From positions 1-26,327 of the forward strand of contig JAEOTM010000080.1 in NCBI GenBank assembly GCA_016839815.1: 26,327 nt of DNA, written 5' to 3'. Shown here in pieces: positions 4,919-13,587 of the stretch (its first letter is position 1; each line of letters starts with the position of its first letter). The translations under genes were made by a program, and so were the position numbers. The notes beneath the pieces are model-generated. The model made no database searches, had not been told where the DNA came from, and was given only the letters and a program-made list of their open reading frames with translations. This stretch comes from Candidatus Hodarchaeota archaeon (GTDB lineage Archaea > Asgardarchaeota > Heimdallarchaeia > Hodarchaeales > Hodarchaeaceae).

Positions 4919-5563
4919 ATGGATTCTGAAGAAATCTATAAAGAAATGGCGGATTCTATTGTAGAGTTAGATCAAGAGAAAGCTTTGAGTCTAGCAAATC
5001 GTGCTCTCGATGAAAATATGGATCTACTAGCAGTGATTGAAAAAGGATTTGGTGAAGGCATTCGTAGAGTTGGAGACTTATGGGATGAAGGTGAATTTTT
5101 TCTTCCAGAATTAATGTCTGGAGCTCAAATCATGCAGAAATCGGTTGATATTATCACACCGAAACTACAATCATCTGGATCTGAACGTCAATCATTGGGT
5201 AAAATCTTGTTAGCAACTATTGAAGGAGATATTCATTCCATTGGTAAAACCATTGTTGCCACTATGTTACGAGCAAATGGATTTCATGTCATCGATATTG
5301 GTACAGATGTAAAAGCTGAAAAAATTGTTGAAGAAGCAATTAAAGAAGATGTCGATATTATAGGAGTTTCGACATTATTAACAACAACGATGATAAATCA
5401 GAAAAAAGTAATTGAAATCCTTGAGAAGAAAAAGGTTCGAGATAAATTTAAAGTAATCTTTGGTGGAGCACCTGTTACACAAGGTTGGGTTGATGAGTGT
5501 AATGCAGATGGTTACGCCGAAAATGCAGTAGAATCAGTAAAGTTAGCTAAGAATCTATTGTAA
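4919..5563 (+). CDS. Corrinoid (cobalamin-binding) methyl-carrier protein, MttC/MtbC/MetH cap plus B12-binding type
   Basis: Cap domain GIRRVGDLWDEGEFFLPEL; B12 motif GDIHSIGK (DxHxxG); STLLTTT; FGGAPVT. Confidence 0.93.
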   Translation: MDSEEIYKEMADSIVELDQEKALSLANRALDENMDLLAVIEKGFGEGIRRVGDLWDEGEFFLPELMSGAQIMQKSVDIITPKLQSSGSERQSLGKILLATIEGDIHSIGKTIVATMLRANGFHVIDIGTDVKAEKIVEEAIKEDVDIIGVSTLLTTTMINQKKVIEILEKKKVRDKFKVIFGGAPVTQGWVDECNADGYAENAVESVKLAKNLL

Positions 5564-5593
5564 AAGCCAAAAAAACATTGACGAAAAAGTGAT

Positions 5594-6484
5594 TTGAAAA
5601 TGTCTTTTACCCAATTGCTAAATGATGACTCAAGGATCATTCTTTTTGATGGTGCAATGGGTACACAATTGATGGAATCTGATTTAGAACCGGGTAAAAT
5701 TCCTGATTTACTTAATATTGAGAATCCAGAGACGGTTCAAAGAGTTTTGAGGAGTTATTTCGATGCTGGTGCAGATATAGTTCAAACATGTACCTTTAGT
5801 TCAAATTATGTAAACTTAGACAAACAGAATTTAGCTCATCTATTATCAAAGCTAAATTTGGAAGCAATTTCTAATATTAAGGCAATTCAACCTTCCAAAG
5901 ATAGGTTGATTGCTGGGGACATAGGCCCCTCGGGTGAATTTCGGCCCCCTGTCGGAAACGCATCAGAAAATCAGTGGAAAACAGGTTTTCGAAAACAAGT
6001 CAAAATTCTAGAACAGGGAGTTGATTTGTGGCATGTTGAGACAATATCAGACCTTCAGGAAATGTCTGCTGCGATTCATGCTATTCGAGAGGTATCTCAG
6101 AAACCGATCATTGCTTCTATGACTTATCGTAAAACAAAAACAAGAGGTTTTTTCACTATTATGGGGGATTCTTTGGAATCCTGTGTCAATCTTTTGGAAG
6201 AGGAAGAAGTCGATGTGGTTGGCACAAATTGCACATTGGGTTCAGATCAGATGGTTACCTTGGCACAAGAGTTGGTGGAATTGAGTGACAAACCCATTTC
6301 TGTCAAACCCAACGCTGGACAACCACGTCTTGCAGGGGGAAGTACTGTTTACGATCAAACTCCTGAAGAATTTGTTAAAGATATTGAACAAATGATTGAT
6401 TTAGGTGTGAAAATTGTTGGTGGGTGTTGTGGTACGACACCTACTCATATCCAAAAACTTCGATCTATGATTAATAATCGCTAG
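5594..6484 (+). CDS. Homocysteine S-methyltransferase domain protein (standalone MetH Hcy-binding module)
   Basis: FDGAMGTQL, AGADIVQTCTF, AGDIGPSG, Zn ligands GTNC and GGCCGTTP, PNAGQP. No fused pterin-binding domain. TTG start. Confidence 0.92.
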   Translation: MKMSFTQLLNDDSRIILFDGAMGTQLMESDLEPGKIPDLLNIENPETVQRVLRSYFDAGADIVQTCTFSSNYVNLDKQNLAHLLSKLNLEAISNIKAIQPSKDRLIAGDIGPSGEFRPPVGNASENQWKTGFRKQVKILEQGVDLWHVETISDLQEMSAAIHAIREVSQKPIIASMTYRKTKTRGFFTIMGDSLESCVNLLEEEEVDVVGTNCTLGSDQMVTLAQELVELSDKPISVKPNAGQPRLAGGSTVYDQTPEEFVKDIEQMIDLGVKIVGGCCGTTPTHIQKLRSMINNR

Positions 6485-6495
6485 GATGTAATTAA

Positions 6496-7920
6496 ATGGG
6501 AATTTTACGACCAAAAGTAGCTTTATTAAACGAGGAATATAAAAGGAAGATTTTTGAGGAAGCCAAGAATATTCTTGAAACCTTAGGGGTTTTAATTGAA
6601 AATAAAAATGCAGAATCCCTTCTCAGAGAGCAGGGGGTTCCTAACAAAGATCAACGGTACTATTTACCCTCAGATCTTGTTGATAAGTGTCTAACTTCCC
6701 CTCCTCATGAAATAACACTATTTGATAGAGAAGGAAAACAGCATCTTTCTCTTGAAGACGATATCATTCATTTTGACCCTGGTTCTGCTGCAATATTCAT
6801 CCTTGATGAGAAATCTGGAGAGATCAGGGAACCTCTTCATGAGGATTTTATTCGGTTTACTAAGATTGTTGACCAATTAACGAATATAGAAGCTCAGAGT
6901 ACTTCTTTAGTATATTCTGATGTTCCTAAGGAAGCTCAGGATTGGCATAGATTATATACAGCTTTGAAGTACAGTCATAAACCAATTGTGACTGGAACGT
7001 TTAAGAAAGAAAGCTTTACGATAATGAATGAACTACTTTTAACCTGCCGCAATTCCGAAAAAGATTTAGCGGCAAAACCCCTTGCAATCTTTGATGCCTG
7101 TCCTTCTCCTCCCTTATCATGGTCGGATTTAACTACACAATCAGTCATCGATGCTGCAGAAAGGATGATTCCCTCTGAATTTATTAGTATGCCCATGTCA
7201 GGAGCAAATGCTCCAATCACATTAATTGGATCCATCACCCAGCACTGTGCTGAATCTCTTGCTGGAGTAGTAATTTCCCAATTAGTAAAAAAAGGAGCTC
7301 CAATAATTTGGGGAGGTTCCCCTGCAGTTATGGATATGAAACATGGAACAACTCCTATGGGGGCTATTGAAACGATGATGATTGACATTGGAGATGCTGA
7401 AATGGGTAAATTCCTAAACCTTCCTACTCATGCTTATATGAGTCTGAGCGATGCAAAGATACCTGACGCTCAAGCTGGATTAGAGGCAGGGATGGGAGCA
7501 TTATTAGCAGGATTAGCAGGAATCAATATGATTTCAGGTCCAGGAATGCTTGATTTTGAATCTTGTCAGTCAATTGAAAAGCTCTTAATCGATAACGAAA
7601 TTGCAGGGATGGTCAAACGTTTTGTAAGAGGGATTAATGATTATGGATCACCATTTGCTAAAGATATTCTACAAGACTATGATGATACTAATGAACTCTT
7701 ATCTCATCCATCAACCCTTCAACTTTTCCGGAAAGAACTTTTCCTACCTAGTCCCATCCTTGCGAGGATGACTCGAGACGAATGGAAAAGTACAGGTTCT
7801 CATTCTTCAAGGCAGAGAGCCAGAATAGAGATAGACAAATTGCTTGCAGCTTCTACCAAAACAGAACTGGATAGTATAAAAGCAAATGAATTGGATAAAC
7901 TTTCCTCTACATATTTATGA
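6496..7920 (+). CDS. MttB-superfamily (trimethylamine/quaternary amine):corrinoid methyltransferase, non-pyrrolysine type
   Basis: SPPL, PMSGANAPITLIGS, AESLAG..ISQL...GAP, MDMKHG, SDAKIPDAQAGLE, GMLDF, EKLLIDNEI. No in-frame amber codon; Leu immediately before SDAK, where methanogen MttB carries Pyl. Confidence 0.9.
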   Translation: MGILRPKVALLNEEYKRKIFEEAKNILETLGVLIENKNAESLLREQGVPNKDQRYYLPSDLVDKCLTSPPHEITLFDREGKQHLSLEDDIIHFDPGSAAIFILDEKSGEIREPLHEDFIRFTKIVDQLTNIEAQSTSLVYSDVPKEAQDWHRLYTALKYSHKPIVTGTFKKESFTIMNELLLTCRNSEKDLAAKPLAIFDACPSPPLSWSDLTTQSVIDAAERMIPSEFISMPMSGANAPITLIGSITQHCAESLAGVVISQLVKKGAPIIWGGSPAVMDMKHGTTPMGAIETMMIDIGDAEMGKFLNLPTHAYMSLSDAKIPDAQAGLEAGMGALLAGLAGINMISGPGMLDFESCQSIEKLLIDNEIAGMVKRFVRGINDYGSPFAKDILQDYDDTNELLSHPSTLQLFRKELFLPSPILARMTRDEWKSTGSHSSRQRARIEIDKLLAASTKTELDSIKANELDKLSSTYL

Positions 7921-7951: not shown

Positions 7952-8605
7952 TTGATTCAAAGAAGAAATTACGGGAAGATCGCGATTCAGGAAGAAGATG
8001 TACTTAATTATCTTCAATCTAATAAGAAATCATCATCAAAATCTAATGCAAAGGTGTTCTCCTCTGATATCAAAATTCGAATAGGGGAGTTAAAAAACAT
8101 CGCTATCGACCTTTTTCAACCAAAAGGAATTTTCTACATATTTAAACAGAACGAACTTCCATTTCGTGAATGTTTTGCTGAAGCAGAAAGGGTAGCGCTT
8201 GCTATTGTAACTATAGGAGCTTCTTTACCATTTGAGGTGAGTCGATTAATGAATTCAGGGGAGTACGTTGATGGAGTAGTACTAGATGCCTTTGGTTCGG
8301 CTGGAGTAGAACGAGTAGCTGATAAAATGAACGATGAGATCAACGAAGTAGTTAGAAGCCGGAAACTTGATTATTCGAAAAGATTTAGTCCAGGTTACTG
8401 CAGTTGGAGTGTAAAGGATCAGAAGATAATTTTTGATCGCTTACCTGCTGAAGAAATTGGAGTATCATTGTCAGATGGATACATGATGCATCCAATAAAA
8501 TCTGTGTCTTTTGCAATCAATATCGGGAGTCAGATAAAAAAATCAAAATGGGAATCACGATGTAAAACATGTGAAGATCGTGGCCAATGTACATATCGGA
8601 TGTAG
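7952..8605 (+). CDS. Standalone methionine synthase AdoMet-dependent reactivation domain protein
   Basis: IVTIG, LDAFGSAGVE, RFSPGYC, IGVSLSDGYMMHPIKSVS; C-terminal CxxC-x5-C-x-YR. TTG start. Confidence 0.88.
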   Translation: MIQRRNYGKIAIQEEDVLNYLQSNKKSSSKSNAKVFSSDIKIRIGELKNIAIDLFQPKGIFYIFKQNELPFRECFAEAERVALAIVTIGASLPFEVSRLMNSGEYVDGVVLDAFGSAGVERVADKMNDEINEVVRSRKLDYSKRFSPGYCSWSVKDQKIIFDRLPAEEIGVSLSDGYMMHPIKSVSFAINIGSQIKKSKWESRCKTCEDRGQCTYRM

Positions 8606-8773
8606 TAAAAAAGCATTAACCAAGTCCATCGGTACATTTAAAGCTACAACGTCCTCAAGGGTGTTCTAGACCTACTCTAAAGTATAATTATTAATAACGA
8701 TTTATCTTTAAGTTGAAAGAATCAACCGTAATGACCATACTAGATAAGCTTAATTCTTTCCTAGGTGAAATCA

Positions 8774-10387
8774 GTGGATGCTAATGATCCGTTAGAAACT
8801 AGGTGTGATATTTTAATCATTGGGTCGGGGATTGCAGGATTATCGATGGCACTTAAGGTAGCTAACATAGGTAAAGTTATCGTACTGACAAAAACGAGCC
8901 TTAAAGAATGCGCTACCATATTAGCGCAAGCAGGTATAAGTGCAGCATTGTCTACTGATGATTCATTTGAGATTCATTATCAGGATACGCTTAATGTCGG
9001 GGATGGACTCTGTCATCCTGATGTGGTAAAAAAAATTGTATCAGCTGGTCCAGCACGGATTGGAGAACTGGTAAAATGGGGTGTTCAATTTTCCAAGAGT
9101 GATCCAGACCATTATGATTTAGGGCTAGAAGCTGGCCATTCTCACCGTCGAGTTGTTCACTCCAAGGATATAACTGGCGCTGATATTCAAGAAACTTTAA
9201 TAAATCGAATTTTGGAAGACTCTCGAATTACAGTCCTTGAGAATCATATTGCTCTCAATCTAAAGGTTCGCGCAGGTCGATGTCGTGGAGCTTATGTCCT
9301 CGATAAGTACAAAGACATTGTCAAAAATTTCTCCGCAAAAGTTACAGTACTTGCTACAGGAGGTCTAGGTAAAGCGTTCCTTTATACGAGCAATCCTGAT
9401 ATCTCGAGTGGGGACGGAATTGCAATGGCGTACCGTGCTGGAGCTACAATCATGAATATGGAATTTATCCAATTCCATCCTACCTTACTCTATCATCCCC
9501 ATGCAAAGTCTTTTTTAATTTCAGAGGCTTTAAGAGGAGAAGGAGCAAAATTAATTGACGAGGAGGGTACTCGGTTTATGAAGAATTATGACTCGCGAAT
9601 GGAATTAGCTCCTCGTGATGTTGTTGCACGGGCTATAGATTCGGAGCTTAAACGCTCTGGGAATGATTGTCTATTCTTAGATATTTCTTTTAAAGATCCT
9701 GAATTTATTAAGGGTAGATTTCCTGGGATTCATGCAAAATGCTTGGAACTGGGTATGGATATCACTAAAACACCAATTCCAATCGTTCCTGCTGCACATT
9801 ACGCTATTGGAGGAGTAAAAGCTTCTGTTTCAGGCATTACTGATATTCCTGGATTACTTGCCATTGGAGAAACGGCATGTACTGGTTTCCATGGAGCTAA
9901 TCGTCTTGCTTCAAATTCATTACTAGAATCTAGTGTAATGGCACATTTTGCTGCAAGAGAATGTCGAAATCTTATTGAAAAAGGACCTCCAATTTGTACC
10001 TTTTCTCCTTGGCATTCTGGTGATGCTGTTGACAGTGATGAATCAGTTGTTGTTTCCCAGAATTGGATGGAACTTCGGCTTCTCATGTGGAATTACGTCG
10101 GAGTGGTTAGATCCGATAAACGTTTTCGTCGTGCTCAACAAAGAATTCACCTTTTACAGGATGAAATTAACCAATATTATTGGAATTTTCATATTACATC
10201 AGATTTGATTGAACTACGGAATTTAGCCGAAATTGCACAAATGATCATAGATGCAGGCTTTCATCGAAAGGAAAGTCGTGGTGTTCATTATACAATTGAT
10301 TATCCTAAGAAAAGAAAAACAACTAAAGATACTTTACTCCGAAAATCAGTTCGAAGTGAAATTTTAGATTCTTCCAAGTGTGAGTAA
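8774..10387 (+). CDS. nadB: L-aspartate oxidase (NAD biosynthesis)
   Basis: IGSGIAG, AQAGI, EAGHSHRRVVH, QFHPT, LISEALRGEG, ELAPRDVVARAI, PAAHY, GFHGANRLASNSLLE, ESRGVHY. GTG 8774 follows an AGGTGA SD motif; the ORF track start at 8765 is also possible. Confidence 0.93.
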   Translation: MDANDPLETRCDILIIGSGIAGLSMALKVANIGKVIVLTKTSLKECATILAQAGISAALSTDDSFEIHYQDTLNVGDGLCHPDVVKKIVSAGPARIGELVKWGVQFSKSDPDHYDLGLEAGHSHRRVVHSKDITGADIQETLINRILEDSRITVLENHIALNLKVRAGRCRGAYVLDKYKDIVKNFSAKVTVLATGGLGKAFLYTSNPDISSGDGIAMAYRAGATIMNMEFIQFHPTLLYHPHAKSFLISEALRGEGAKLIDEEGTRFMKNYDSRMELAPRDVVARAIDSELKRSGNDCLFLDISFKDPEFIKGRFPGIHAKCLELGMDITKTPIPIVPAAHYAIGGVKASVSGITDIPGLLAIGETACTGFHGANRLASNSLLESSVMAHFAARECRNLIEKGPPICTFSPWHSGDAVDSDESVVVSQNWMELRLLMWNYVGVVRSDKRFRRAQQRIHLLQDEINQYYWNFHITSDLIELRNLAEIAQMIIDAGFHRKESRGVHYTIDYPKKRKTTKDTLLRKSVRSEILDSSKCE

Positions 10388-10590
10388 CTGTTTTCTTATA
10401 GAGATAGTAGAAATTTGTCTTCATATTGCTGAAGTAGTGAAATCTTAGCTACTAAAGAAATAAAAAACCCTACTCCCCTCATAGAATTTGAAGATCATTC
10501 TGAAGAGAGAGATTTATATTCCCACAAAATTATCATCTGTTCTTTTAAGGGTCTTTACAGCGATATTTCAATGAAAGGATAGAACTCAAT

Positions 10591-10758
10591 ATGTCAATGG
10601 AAGAATTACTAACCCTAGAGATTTATCCAGAACTTGTCAAACCATGGGATTGTCCTTGCCTGATTTGTGATCATCTAGAACGATGTGGGGTAGGTCAGGA
10701 ATTTAACCCCATCGGATGTCCTTGGTTAAACAATTATATATCCTTATTGCTAGAATAA
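10591..10758 (+). CDS. 55-aa Cys-rich protein resembling the RPC34/TFE-beta C-terminal 4Fe-4S domain (absent from the ORF track)
   Basis: Manual translation: MSMEELLTLEIYPELVKPWDCPCLICDHLERCGVGQEFNPIGCPWLNNYISLLLE*; pattern P-C-x2-C-x5-C-x7-P-x2-C. Confidence 0.8.
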   Translation: MSMEELLTLEIYPELVKPWDCPCLICDHLERCGVGQEFNPIGCPWLNNYISLLLE

Positions 10759-10811: not shown

Positions 10812-11651
10812 TTAGTATTCTGCCAAAGTACCACGTTTTCTTGCATGAGTGACGGTTCTTCGAAAGAAACTTATACCCACAAATGGTAATATACACGCGA
10901 AAAAAGCTACAATTCCGAATTCTAGTTCATAGGATAAAAGTTCAGGTGCTGTACCAATCATTGTCGAACGAAACAGATCGACACAATACGAGAGAGGAAT
11001 TAATCGTGATATTATCAAAACTATATCAGGTAGAGCAGAAAAAGGAAAAAACATTGCACATACTATCATAAAAGCAAATTGCAGGAAATTTGTGAGGGTA
11101 TTCATTGATTCTTTGTATTGCAATGCTAGTCCTGCAAAACCAAAAGAGAATCCAAAACAGACAAATAAGCTTAGAATAAGAACAATCATTCCTAACAATA
11201 CATTTTGAACTGGTAATTGACCGAAGACTAGGGACATGAAGAGAAAAGCAATAATTACGTTTAGACTTGTCCAAATCACGTTTGAAAGTATTCGTGAGAC
11301 GAGTGTGGAGAAATAGCTAATCGGAGACATAAATAATGATTCTAGAGTACCTTGATATTGTTCTTCACGAAGAGAATTCCCAATATCCCAAAGTGCAGTA
11401 GAGAAGAACATGAAAAGGATAAATGAATAGAACATAATTCCTGCACCATAACTTTCCTTATCAGGTGGAGCGAGCACCATTGCAGCTGCTGTAAAAACAA
11501 ACATGATTACCATAACTTGAACAAAGCTTAATATGAATGAAAACTTATAGCGAGTTAGAACAATGAATTCCTTTCGGGTCATGGCGATAAACTGTCTCCA
11601 CCAAGACTTTGTTCCGTGTATGCGAACTTCTTCATGTGTAGCAAGTACCAT
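10812..11651 (-). CDS. ABC-2 type exporter permease
   Basis: Six predicted TM segments; EEQYQGTLESLFMSP; FFPFSALP...IPLSY. Confidence 0.9.
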   Translation of the reverse strand: MVLATHEEVRIHGTKSWWRQFIAMTRKEFIVLTRYKFSFILSFVQVMVIMFVFTAAAMVLAPPDKESYGAGIMFYSFILFMFFSTALWDIGNSLREEQYQGTLESLFMSPISYFSTLVSRILSNVIWTSLNVIIAFLFMSLVFGQLPVQNVLLGMIVLILSLFVCFGFSFGFAGLALQYKESMNTLTNFLQFAFMIVCAMFFPFSALPDIVLIISRLIPLSYCVDLFRSTMIGTAPELLSYELEFGIVAFFACILPFVGISFFRRTVTHARKRGTLAEY

Positions 11652-11662
11652 TGTTCTATCTC

Positions 11663-12532
11663 CTAAAATTGTCCAATACCTTCAGCTTTTTTGCTTCGTG
11701 ATTCGGTTCTAGAGAATATTACATAGCCTATCAAGGGACAGGTTAAAGCAAATACAAACAGAACGCCTAAATGAACATAGATATTCACAAAAAACCAGTC
11801 CAATCCCATAAGGGCAGCTTGGATATTATAATTGAGCCAAAATCCAGGAAAGAGGTAAGCCATAATTCGGAAAGTGAATGGTAGGACGGTAATTGGAAAA
11901 AACACTCCCATAAATGCGCCTATTATCCATTGTAGTGTACTTAGCAAGCTATTTGCTTGTTTTACCTTCAAGACGAGTGCTCCTAATAAAAATGATAATC
12001 CATAGATTGGAATTAGGCCAAATAGGAGAATGACGAGTGCTAGGAGGACTTGGCCTTGAATGGGATTAATAGAGAATAATAGACAACCAAACAAATACCC
12101 TCCCAGAAAGGTTATTATTGATCTGATTTGTACATAGAGAGTAAGACCGATTAAAATTGAGATCTGGTGAGCTGGGGACATAAATAATGCCTCTAAAGTA
12201 CCTAGAGTTTGCTCTCGTCTAATGAAAAATCCAAATAACCATAAAGAGGTAGTAACTGTGGCGAATACATTCGCGCCTATGATGATAAATGCAACGTAAT
12301 TTGCACCTATTAATCCCGTATTCTGTTCAAAATTTGCAGACGCAGCAGAAATTGAACCAGATAATGCTTGCCCTAAAAGAATTGGCATAGCAGCTAGCAG
12401 TACAGGAGTCAATATATCCATAAATAGCATCCCTTTATACCGAGAAATGGTTTTTATTCGGACTACAAAGGTTCCCCATATGACACCCCAGTGTCCTCTC
12501 AACGTTAATGCCTGAACTGGAGCATACATCAC
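11663..12532 (-). CDS. ABC-2 type exporter permease
   Basis: REQTLGTLEALFMSP; GVFFPITVLP; hydrophobic multi-TM; overlaps the ATPase stop codon. Confidence 0.9.
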   Translation of the reverse strand: MMYAPVQALTLRGHWGVIWGTFVVRIKTISRYKGMLFMDILTPVLLAAMPILLGQALSGSISAASANFEQNTGLIGANYVAFIIIGANVFATVTTSLWLFGFFIRREQTLGTLEALFMSPAHQISILIGLTLYVQIRSIITFLGGYLFGCLLFSINPIQGQVLLALVILLFGLIPIYGLSFLLGALVLKVKQANSLLSTLQWIIGAFMGVFFPITVLPFTFRIMAYLFPGFWLNYNIQAALMGLDWFFVNIYVHLGVLFVFALTCPLIGYVIFSRTESRSKKAEGIGQF

Positions 12533-13587
12533 TTATCGCTTCCTAATTTTGCTTTAACGACCTGGCTTGTATCATCCATTAATGAGCGCCCAGTAATATT
12601 AACAAAAACGTCTTCAAGTGTGGTTTCTTTTTTATCAATATTTCGGATTATTGCTCCATTCGTCGTCAAAGTTGCTATAATCTCTGGTAAATTTTGATGA
12701 CTATTCTCACAAGTAATATTGAGATAGGGATGTTTCTCTGTGGATCCATTACTACTCTGTTTAACTAGCATTTGAGCTGATAATACCCCTGGAGTTGTAT
12801 TTAATGCCGTTTGAGCGTATTCGGGGATGGTTCCTTCTATAGAAAGAATATCATTTTCTTGTAGACCTTGTTTCAAGTCCATCGGATCATCGAGAGCAAT
12901 TATTTCTCCATGGTCTATTATCCCTACTCTGGCACATAATTCTTCTGCCTCGTGCATAAGATGGGTACAATAGATTATTGTTTTATTATAATCTTCATTT
13001 TGCTCTCTCACTATTTTTCGTAAGCGACGAGCTTCTTTTACATCCAATGTGTTTGTAGGTTCATCTAGCATAAGTATAGGGGCATCATTAATAAGAGCAC
13101 GAGCAAAAACCATTTTCATTTTTTGTCCAGAAGAATAAGTTTCAACCGTCCGATCAGCAATTTTTTCTAATTCCAGTAAATCGATGAGCGATTTAATCCG
13201 TTCTTTTCTAGTAATTTTTGGTACATGATAAAGTGCACCAAAGTACTCTAAATTTTCTCGGCCAGTTAGTTTCCAGTATAATCCTCGTTCTCCCATCAAC
13301 ATCGCACCTATTGAGGATTTAATTTCTTTATCCTCGTCCAAGCTGTAGCCATTAACCTTTGCGATGCCTGAGGTTGGGAGTAATAGAGTTGTTAGTATTT
13401 TAATGAGTGTTGTTTTTCCTGCTCCATTTGGACCGAGTAAACCAAATACTTCTCCTTGATCTACATCGAAAGTAACTCCTTTTAGTGCCTTTACTACATT
13501 TTTCTCGGTTTTGAATATCCCCAAACGCTTTTTTGATGTATAATGCTTCGTTAGCTCTCTTACTTCAATCATTTTATTGGTTACCAT
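12529..13587 (-). CDS. ABC exporter ATP-binding protein (DrrA/NodI-like, with a C-terminal accessory domain)
   Basis: Walker A GPNGAGKTT, signature YSSGQK, Walker B MLDEPT, H-loop THLMHEAE, C-terminal TLEDVF. Confidence 0.95.
   Translation of the reverse strand: MVTNKMIEVRELTKHYTSKKRLGIFKTEKNVVKALKGVTFDVDQGEVFGLLGPNGAGKTTLIKILTTLLLPTSGIAKVNGYSLDEDKEIKSSIGAMLMGERGLYWKLTGRENLEYFGALYHVPKITRKERIKSLIDLLELEKIADRTVETYSSGQKMKMVFARALINDAPILMLDEPTNTLDVKEARRLRKIVREQNEDYNKTIIYCTHLMHEAEELCARVGIIDHGEIIALDDPMDLKQGLQENDILSIEGTIPEYAQTALNTTPGVLSAQMLVKQSSNGSTEKHPYLNITCENSHQNLPEIIATLTTNGAIIRNIDKKETTLEDVFVNITGRSLMDDTSQVVKAKLGSDK

Follow-up and report, generated by a model that had tools for sequence, protein, structure and literature searches.

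The window considered here is the whole 26,327-nt stretch of Hodarchaeales DNA that was analyzed, and all positions refer to it. At 10591..10758 on the forward strand it holds a short coding sequence that begins with ATG at 10591, ends with TAA at 10756–10758 and specifies a protein of 55 aa. This micro ORF starts 203 nt downstream of a nadB-like gene (8765–10387, + strand) for an L-aspartate oxidase, a flavoprotein with the Pfam domains FAD_binding_2 and Succ_DH_flav_C that we treat as genomic context and not as part of the factor described below. It is convergent with a transporter operon encoding ABC-2 permeases and an ATPase (10812–13587, − strand). The nadB gene lies upstream of the micro ORF on the same strand in 15 of the 16 same-genus loci that were fetched, and across orthologues the intergenic length is about 60–240 nt in most cases. 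Three genus members (L032, L034 and L037) have a gap of ~1–1.9 kb between the two genes, as opposed to 60–240 nt elsewhere. In related MAGs the microprotein is annotated only as 'hypothetical protein'.

Further upstream on the + strand, a 217-aa ORF at 7952–8605 without a Pfam match at E ≤ 1e-5 is 66–72% identical in two close relatives, where it is also located upstream of nadB. It is preceded by a corrinoid methyl-transfer cluster (4919–7920, + strand) composed of a B12-binding corrinoid protein (4919–5563), a homocysteine S-methyltransferase-type protein (5594–6484) and a 474-aa MttB-family methyltransferase (6496–7920; PF06253, 254 bits) encoded by an uninterrupted ORF. The Rfam element PYLIS_3, an mttB pyrrolysine insertion element, matches at 7444–7543 (+ strand) with 40.6 bits against a gathering score of 38. 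Since the MttB-family ORF contains no in-frame TAG it resembles a non-pyrrolysine MttB homologue, and the PYLIS_3 match inside it probably reflects plain gene homology.

The reading frame of the microprotein is closed upstream by TAA at 10546–10548, which is 45 nt before the start codon, confirming the first-pass annotation in its statement that no winged helix is attached. Two TATA-like boxes upstream of the micro ORF are plausible candidates for promoter elements. One is the putative promoter TTTATATT (10513..10520, + strand), which is located 71 nt upstream of the start codon after a purine-rich stretch, and the other is TTTTAAG at 10543–10549. Only TTTATATT is partly conserved, and this among the three closest relatives, which have TTTTTATT or TTTTTGTA in the aligned columns. 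An alignment of 12 upstream regions points to a putative purine-rich Shine-Dalgarno-like motif. In this genome it reads AGGA (10576..10579, + strand) and lies 11 nt upstream of the ATG; in the second clade of the genus it reads GAGG and lies 8 nt upstream of a TTG that takes the place of ATG 10591. Apart from the Shine-Dalgarno-like motif and a codon triplet [A/T]TG-TCA-ATG, whose first codon is ATG in this genome and TTG in half of the genus, the intergenic DNA before the micro ORF is unconserved. The conservation of the start codon together with the Shine-Dalgarno-like motif makes the first codon of the triplet the likely start. A scan for sigma-70 promoters and terminators found nothing above shuffled sequences, a result of a bacterial model that is irrelevant for archaea.

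The encoded protein begins with a conserved N-terminal segment of 20 residues (MSMEELLT...PW) that precedes a four-cysteine motif, Cx2Cx5Cx10C, with codons at 10657..10719 (+ strand). Written out, the spacing is P22-C23-x2-C26-x5-C32-x10-C43, and a proline, P40, precedes C43 by three residues. All 98 aligned family members have C23, C26, C32 and C43, and conservation of P22 and P40 is 90% or higher, a pattern from which we infer that the four cysteines are the ligands of a cubane [4Fe-4S] cluster. The additional cysteine C21 is replaced by S, V, L, T or I in relatives and, because the position varies, is not a ligand. The ORF coordinates, the Cys and Pro spacing, the location in the gap between nadB and the ABC operon and the positions of TTTATATT and TTTTAAG had all been given correctly in the first-pass annotation.

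The micro ORF is present at 67–93% identity in 18 of 21 same-genus genomes, and a profile search recovered it in 20 of 24 Hodarchaeales genomes, always as one short, stand-alone ORF. Among 15 orthologues the median pN was 0.16 compared with a median pS of 0.76, with synonymous sites saturated, and the 45 unsaturated pairs that could be corrected gave a dN/dS of ~0.08. The micro ORF is a real gene under strong purifying selection. Four genus genomes gave no match to it. In one of these (G013) a contig end cuts nadB, in a second (G019) a different gene follows nadB in a rearranged locus, and the remaining two (G017 and G006) have no close nadB, so that loss of the micro ORF is unproven in these genomes.

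When used directly as a query, the 55-aa protein has no meaningful match in Pfam, NCBIfam or the PDB sequences. Its sole direct match, to ATX_III at E 0.058, was rejected as chance. It likewise has no match at E ≤ 10 to PF05158 (RNA_pol_Rpc34), a model that spans a whole protein of 332 positions and has a curated cut-off of 28.4 bits. The case for homology therefore depends on profiles. The 92-aa form of a sister family in the order, which also lacks a winged helix, matches the last 62 positions of PF05158 (271–332) with E 4.8e-5 and 23.4 bits, which is below the cut-off of 28.4. Proteins of 138–155 aa from other families of the class have the Cys motif at the C-terminal end and a helix-turn-helix-like part at the N-terminal end, which is, as read from their sequences, the architecture of TFE-beta. 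A profile of the FeS region (29 sequences, 53 positions) run against 1.84 billion representatives detected 87 proteins at E ≤ 1e-3, and PF05158 matched 40 of the 83 profile matches that were scanned. Several of these PF05158 matches score 124–216 bits by way of parts outside the FeS domain, namely the winged helices, and those proteins are therefore true RPC34.

An hhalign comparison of the family with nine Pfam-verified RPC34 proteins gave 98.4% with E 6e-15 over residues 12–55; it is partly circular in that the RPC34 set was drawn from the matches of the family profile itself, while the RPC34 identity of these proteins is independent of that. A wider profile built from 98 FeS domains had a sole match in the PDB, residues 282–315 of human RPC6 (E 1e-10), and the cysteines of the microprotein align with those of human RPC6 285–315. 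AF2 with the 29-sequence alignment yielded a model with a pLDDT of 58.7 that was discarded, and the 98-sequence alignment was used instead, giving a pLDDT above 90 for residues 21–55. A Foldseek search of the PDB with this model returned four rows, all of them human Pol III RPC6 chains, with an rmsd of 1.2–1.3 Å over 30–32 columns for three chains and 2.8 Å for the fourth. The Foldseek E-values are weak (0.045–0.54) because the domain is tiny. The hhalign comparison, the RPC6 match and the fold search, which found RPC6 only, bear out the first-pass assignment and support the view that the microprotein is a stand-alone FeS domain of the TFE-beta/RPC34 type without a winged helix.

We also observed that seven proteins (P0081, P0088, P0091, P0094, P0100, P0084 and P0076), most of them Pfam-verified RPC34 proteins or fragments, stop exactly nine residues past the last Cys and end in ...WLxF, WMKF or FLDF, an ending that the archaeal forms do not have. 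In a bioRxiv paper, a C-terminal [LIM]-[DES]-[WF] tripeptide is proposed to mark clients of the cytosolic Fe-S assembly machinery, and the endings of these seven proteins resemble this tripeptide.

A full-length TFE-beta was sought in the genome by several routes. A PF05158 scan was empty, and a long Heimdall TFE-beta used as query found no full-length TFE-beta. The best E obtained with a profile built from 16 winged helices of TFE-beta was 0.54, to a 36-aa frame with a stop, and a scan with PF02186 (TFIIE_beta) gave a best E of just 0.57. A winged-helix-like candidate on contig C20 (E 0.26) was considered as a split partner and rejected, as it is a small GTPase. The genome is 89.5% complete, so that a second gene could be unassembled. 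No long TFE-beta form was found in any of the 24 Hodarchaeales genomes.

Among Asgard genomes the FeS domain was detected in 144 of 151, nearly always as a single copy. The frames that hold it are 110–230 aa long in other Asgard families as compared with 61–89 aa in the family of the microprotein, the exceptions with short frames being family f10 (56 aa), family f24 (81–87 aa) and single genomes with 82 and 99 aa. At five short-frame loci of 56–99 aa (L049 in G043, L050 in G086, L051 in G079, L052 in G045 and L053 in G092) no winged-helix remnant was found upstream in any frame. Stand-alone forms of 56–71 aa were additionally found among database proteins on long contigs labelled Odin-, Hermod-, 'Asgardarchaeia' and 'Ranarchaeia'; proteins with Odin-, Hermod- and Ran-archaeal labels measure 56–63 aa. 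It thus seems, from these sequences, that the winged helix was lost from TFE-beta more than once in Asgard archaea. In two genomes the FeS domain occurs twice, with frame lengths of 194 and 60 aa in G135 and of 190 and 100 aa in G113; in G113 the long and the short copy are ~400 nt apart on one contig.

With no full-length TFE-beta found and nearly always one copy per Asgard genome, the microprotein is best explained as the orthologue itself in shortened form. It is not a canonical TFE-beta, as the winged helix was tested for and is absent. We propose, with a probability of about 72%, that the microprotein is the sole detectable TFE-beta orthologue of this Hodarchaeales genome, reduced to the C-terminal [4Fe-4S] domain.

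The genome encodes a TFE-alpha of 203 aa on contig C100 (45 bits to PF02002), which is highly conserved in the order and keeps its tail helix. We modeled the complex of TFE-alpha, a 4Fe-4S cluster and the microprotein in three runs alongside controls. The median score of the three runs was 0.80 compared with 0.00 for the best control. Of 80 solved complexes 58 attain this mark, as do 2 of 110 mismatched pairs, counts that are only roughly valid here because our models, unlike the calibration, used their own alignments and included a ligand. Partner pLDDT did not fall below 82, and 91% or more of the contacts were common to the runs. The modeled interface comprises TFE-alpha residues 4–13 and 111–125 and the tail helix 167–182, in agreement with the biochemical map. 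The passing score may in part be a memory of solved RPC3/RPC6 assemblies. The model supports, and does not show, that the microprotein binds TFE-alpha. The first-pass annotation had proposed a modulator that binds TFE-alpha or RNAP, and it is the TFE-alpha part of this proposal that gains support from the model.

Biochemical work on Saccharolobus provides a framework for a function of such a protein. Residues C92, C95, C101 and C112 of Sso TFE-beta hold a [4Fe-4S]2+ cluster (PMC4495717). Dimerization there does without the beta winged helix but requires the FeS domain and, within it, three of the Cys; the FeS domain is necessary for binding of TFE-alpha, and on the other side the winged helix and C-terminal tail of TFE-alpha are required for binding of beta (PMC4495717). 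The core formed by the alpha winged helix and the beta FeS domain can trigger DNA melting, and the beta winged helix adds stability to the pre-initiation complex, its deletion lowering that stability strongly (PMC4495717).

Following this framework, the four Cys of the microprotein would hold a cubane cluster, and the folded FeS domain is predicted to dock on two helices of TFE-alpha, the one that follows the winged helix and the one in the C-terminal tail. By analogy, TFE-alpha and the microprotein would constitute a 'minimal TFE-alpha/beta core' of the kind that in Saccharolobus is enough for dimerization and for stimulating DNA melting, with the DNA-side stabilizing contact of the beta winged helix presumably given up. 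Given the oxygen lability of the Saccharolobus cluster, the microprotein may also make TFE activity redox-dependent. Transcription in this lineage thus seems to be initiated with a pared-down TFE. If Saccharolobus is a guide in this respect as well, the loss of pre-initiation complex stability upon deletion of the beta winged helix would count against such a reduced factor.

The first-pass annotation had described the microprotein as a paralogue, that is, as an extra copy without a winged helix that could compete with the full-length protein for binding to TFE-alpha or RNAP and act as a dominant-negative competitor or redox modulator. Judging from the complex model, the FeS domain would be able to fill the TFE-alpha site, and a few Asgard genomes do have a long and a short copy, such as G135 (194/60 aa) and G113 (190/100 aa), to which the idea could apply. 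In the present genome, in contrast, searches with PF05158, the long Heimdall form and the winged-helix profile detected no full-length TFE-beta, and each of the 20 positive Hodarchaeales genomes gave a single, short hit. The paralogue claim is thus not supported, with no full-length form found in the 24 Hodarchaeales genomes and nearly always one copy in Asgard archaea, nor is the dominant-negative claim, for want of a full-length TFE-beta to compete with; we consider a competing paralogue very improbable in this genome. A decayed remnant of a full-length gene, a possibility that the first-pass annotation had itself raised, or a chance ORF has in its favor that the frame is short, called hypothetical in related MAGs and without a direct Pfam match. 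Neither agrees with a dN/dS of ~0.08 at saturated synonymous sites, with the invariance of all four Cys, or with a conserved start and Shine-Dalgarno-like motif behind upstream DNA that is unconserved and, at about 60–240 nt, too short for a winged helix, and we give this explanation almost no weight.

A different partner has more to recommend it. The microprotein could be a TFE-beta-derived FeS (or Zn) protein that sits on the RNAP clamp or serves as a small redox or cluster-carrier protein, given that the FeS motif of human Pol III RPC6 is positioned directly above the clamp (PMC8837262), that a protein deprived of the winged helix may have taken on a different role and that TFE-alpha is the only partner that was modeled. 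This is countered by the predicted TFE-alpha complex, which passes where controls score 0.00, by the retention in TFE-alpha of the tail helix that is necessary for beta binding in Saccharolobus, and by the one-to-one substitution of this gene for the single canonical copy. We therefore regard another partner as unlikely and favor the reading of the microprotein as a reduced TFE-beta orthologue.

In the general initiation factor TFE-beta, the FeS domain serves as the hinge that keeps the TFE dimer together. A lineage with the hinge alone reproduces in nature the deletion construct that defined the minimal factor and is a case of initiation coping without the beta winged helix; its very small and tractable protein lends itself to the question of whether the cluster is structural glue or a redox sensor. 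Its occurrence in Asgard archaea gives the variant relevance to the divergence of TFIIE-beta and RPC34. Some phylogenies place Hodarchaeales beside eukaryotes. A bolder extension, which we consider doubtful as a whole, is that basal transcription in Hodarchaeales uses a natural minimal TFE made of TFE-alpha and a 55-aa FeS clip, that the winged helix and the FeS domain are separable modules which were independently and repeatedly lost, and that the clip is an oxygen-sensitive on/off switch of global initiation. If this were true, the modularity of TFE-beta would be of the kind needed for the eukaryotic split into a cluster-less TFIIE-beta and a cluster-bearing RPC34. Annotations miss the gene or call it hypothetical, so that surveys could count TFE-beta as absent from Hodarchaeales. 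A 2018 review lists TFE-beta simply as present in Asgard archaea (PMC7289017), and our literature searches turned up no publication on a TFE-beta without a winged helix in these archaea.

A close comparison is TFE-beta of Saccharolobus solfataricus (Sso0944; Blombach et al. 2015, PMC4495717), which has in common with the microprotein the Cx2Cx5Cx10C motif followed by an aromatic helix. Both are present in one copy per genome, and the predicted partner of the microprotein is likewise TFE-alpha, bound by way of its tail helix. Unlike Sso0944, the microprotein has no N-terminal winged helix and is only 55 aa long as compared with the 110–230-aa frames in other Asgard families, which makes it the natural counterpart of the experimental Saccharolobus delta-1-73 construct (PMC4495717). 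The FeS domain of RPC6/RPC34/hRPC39 (PF05158; human POLR3F, PDB 7A6H, 7D58 and 8IUE) is homologous to the microprotein. RPC6 differs from the microprotein in having three winged helices and in being a stable subunit of Pol III, where it is bound to RPC3 and RPC7; the microprotein also falls below the Pfam cut-off.

Haloarchaeal TFE-beta and C34 of S. cerevisiae also represent lineage-specific reductions of the TFE-beta/RPC34 architecture. In those proteins the winged helix or helices are kept and the Cys cluster is lost (PMC4495717, PMC5861453), and the microprotein is thus their mirror image. That archaeal initiation tolerates the loss of TFE-beta parts is illustrated further by the monomeric TFE-alpha systems of group II Euryarchaeota, which have no TFE-beta (PMC7289017). 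The whole of TFE-beta is gone in those organisms, whereas in Hodarchaeales the dimerization domain is retained under strong selection.
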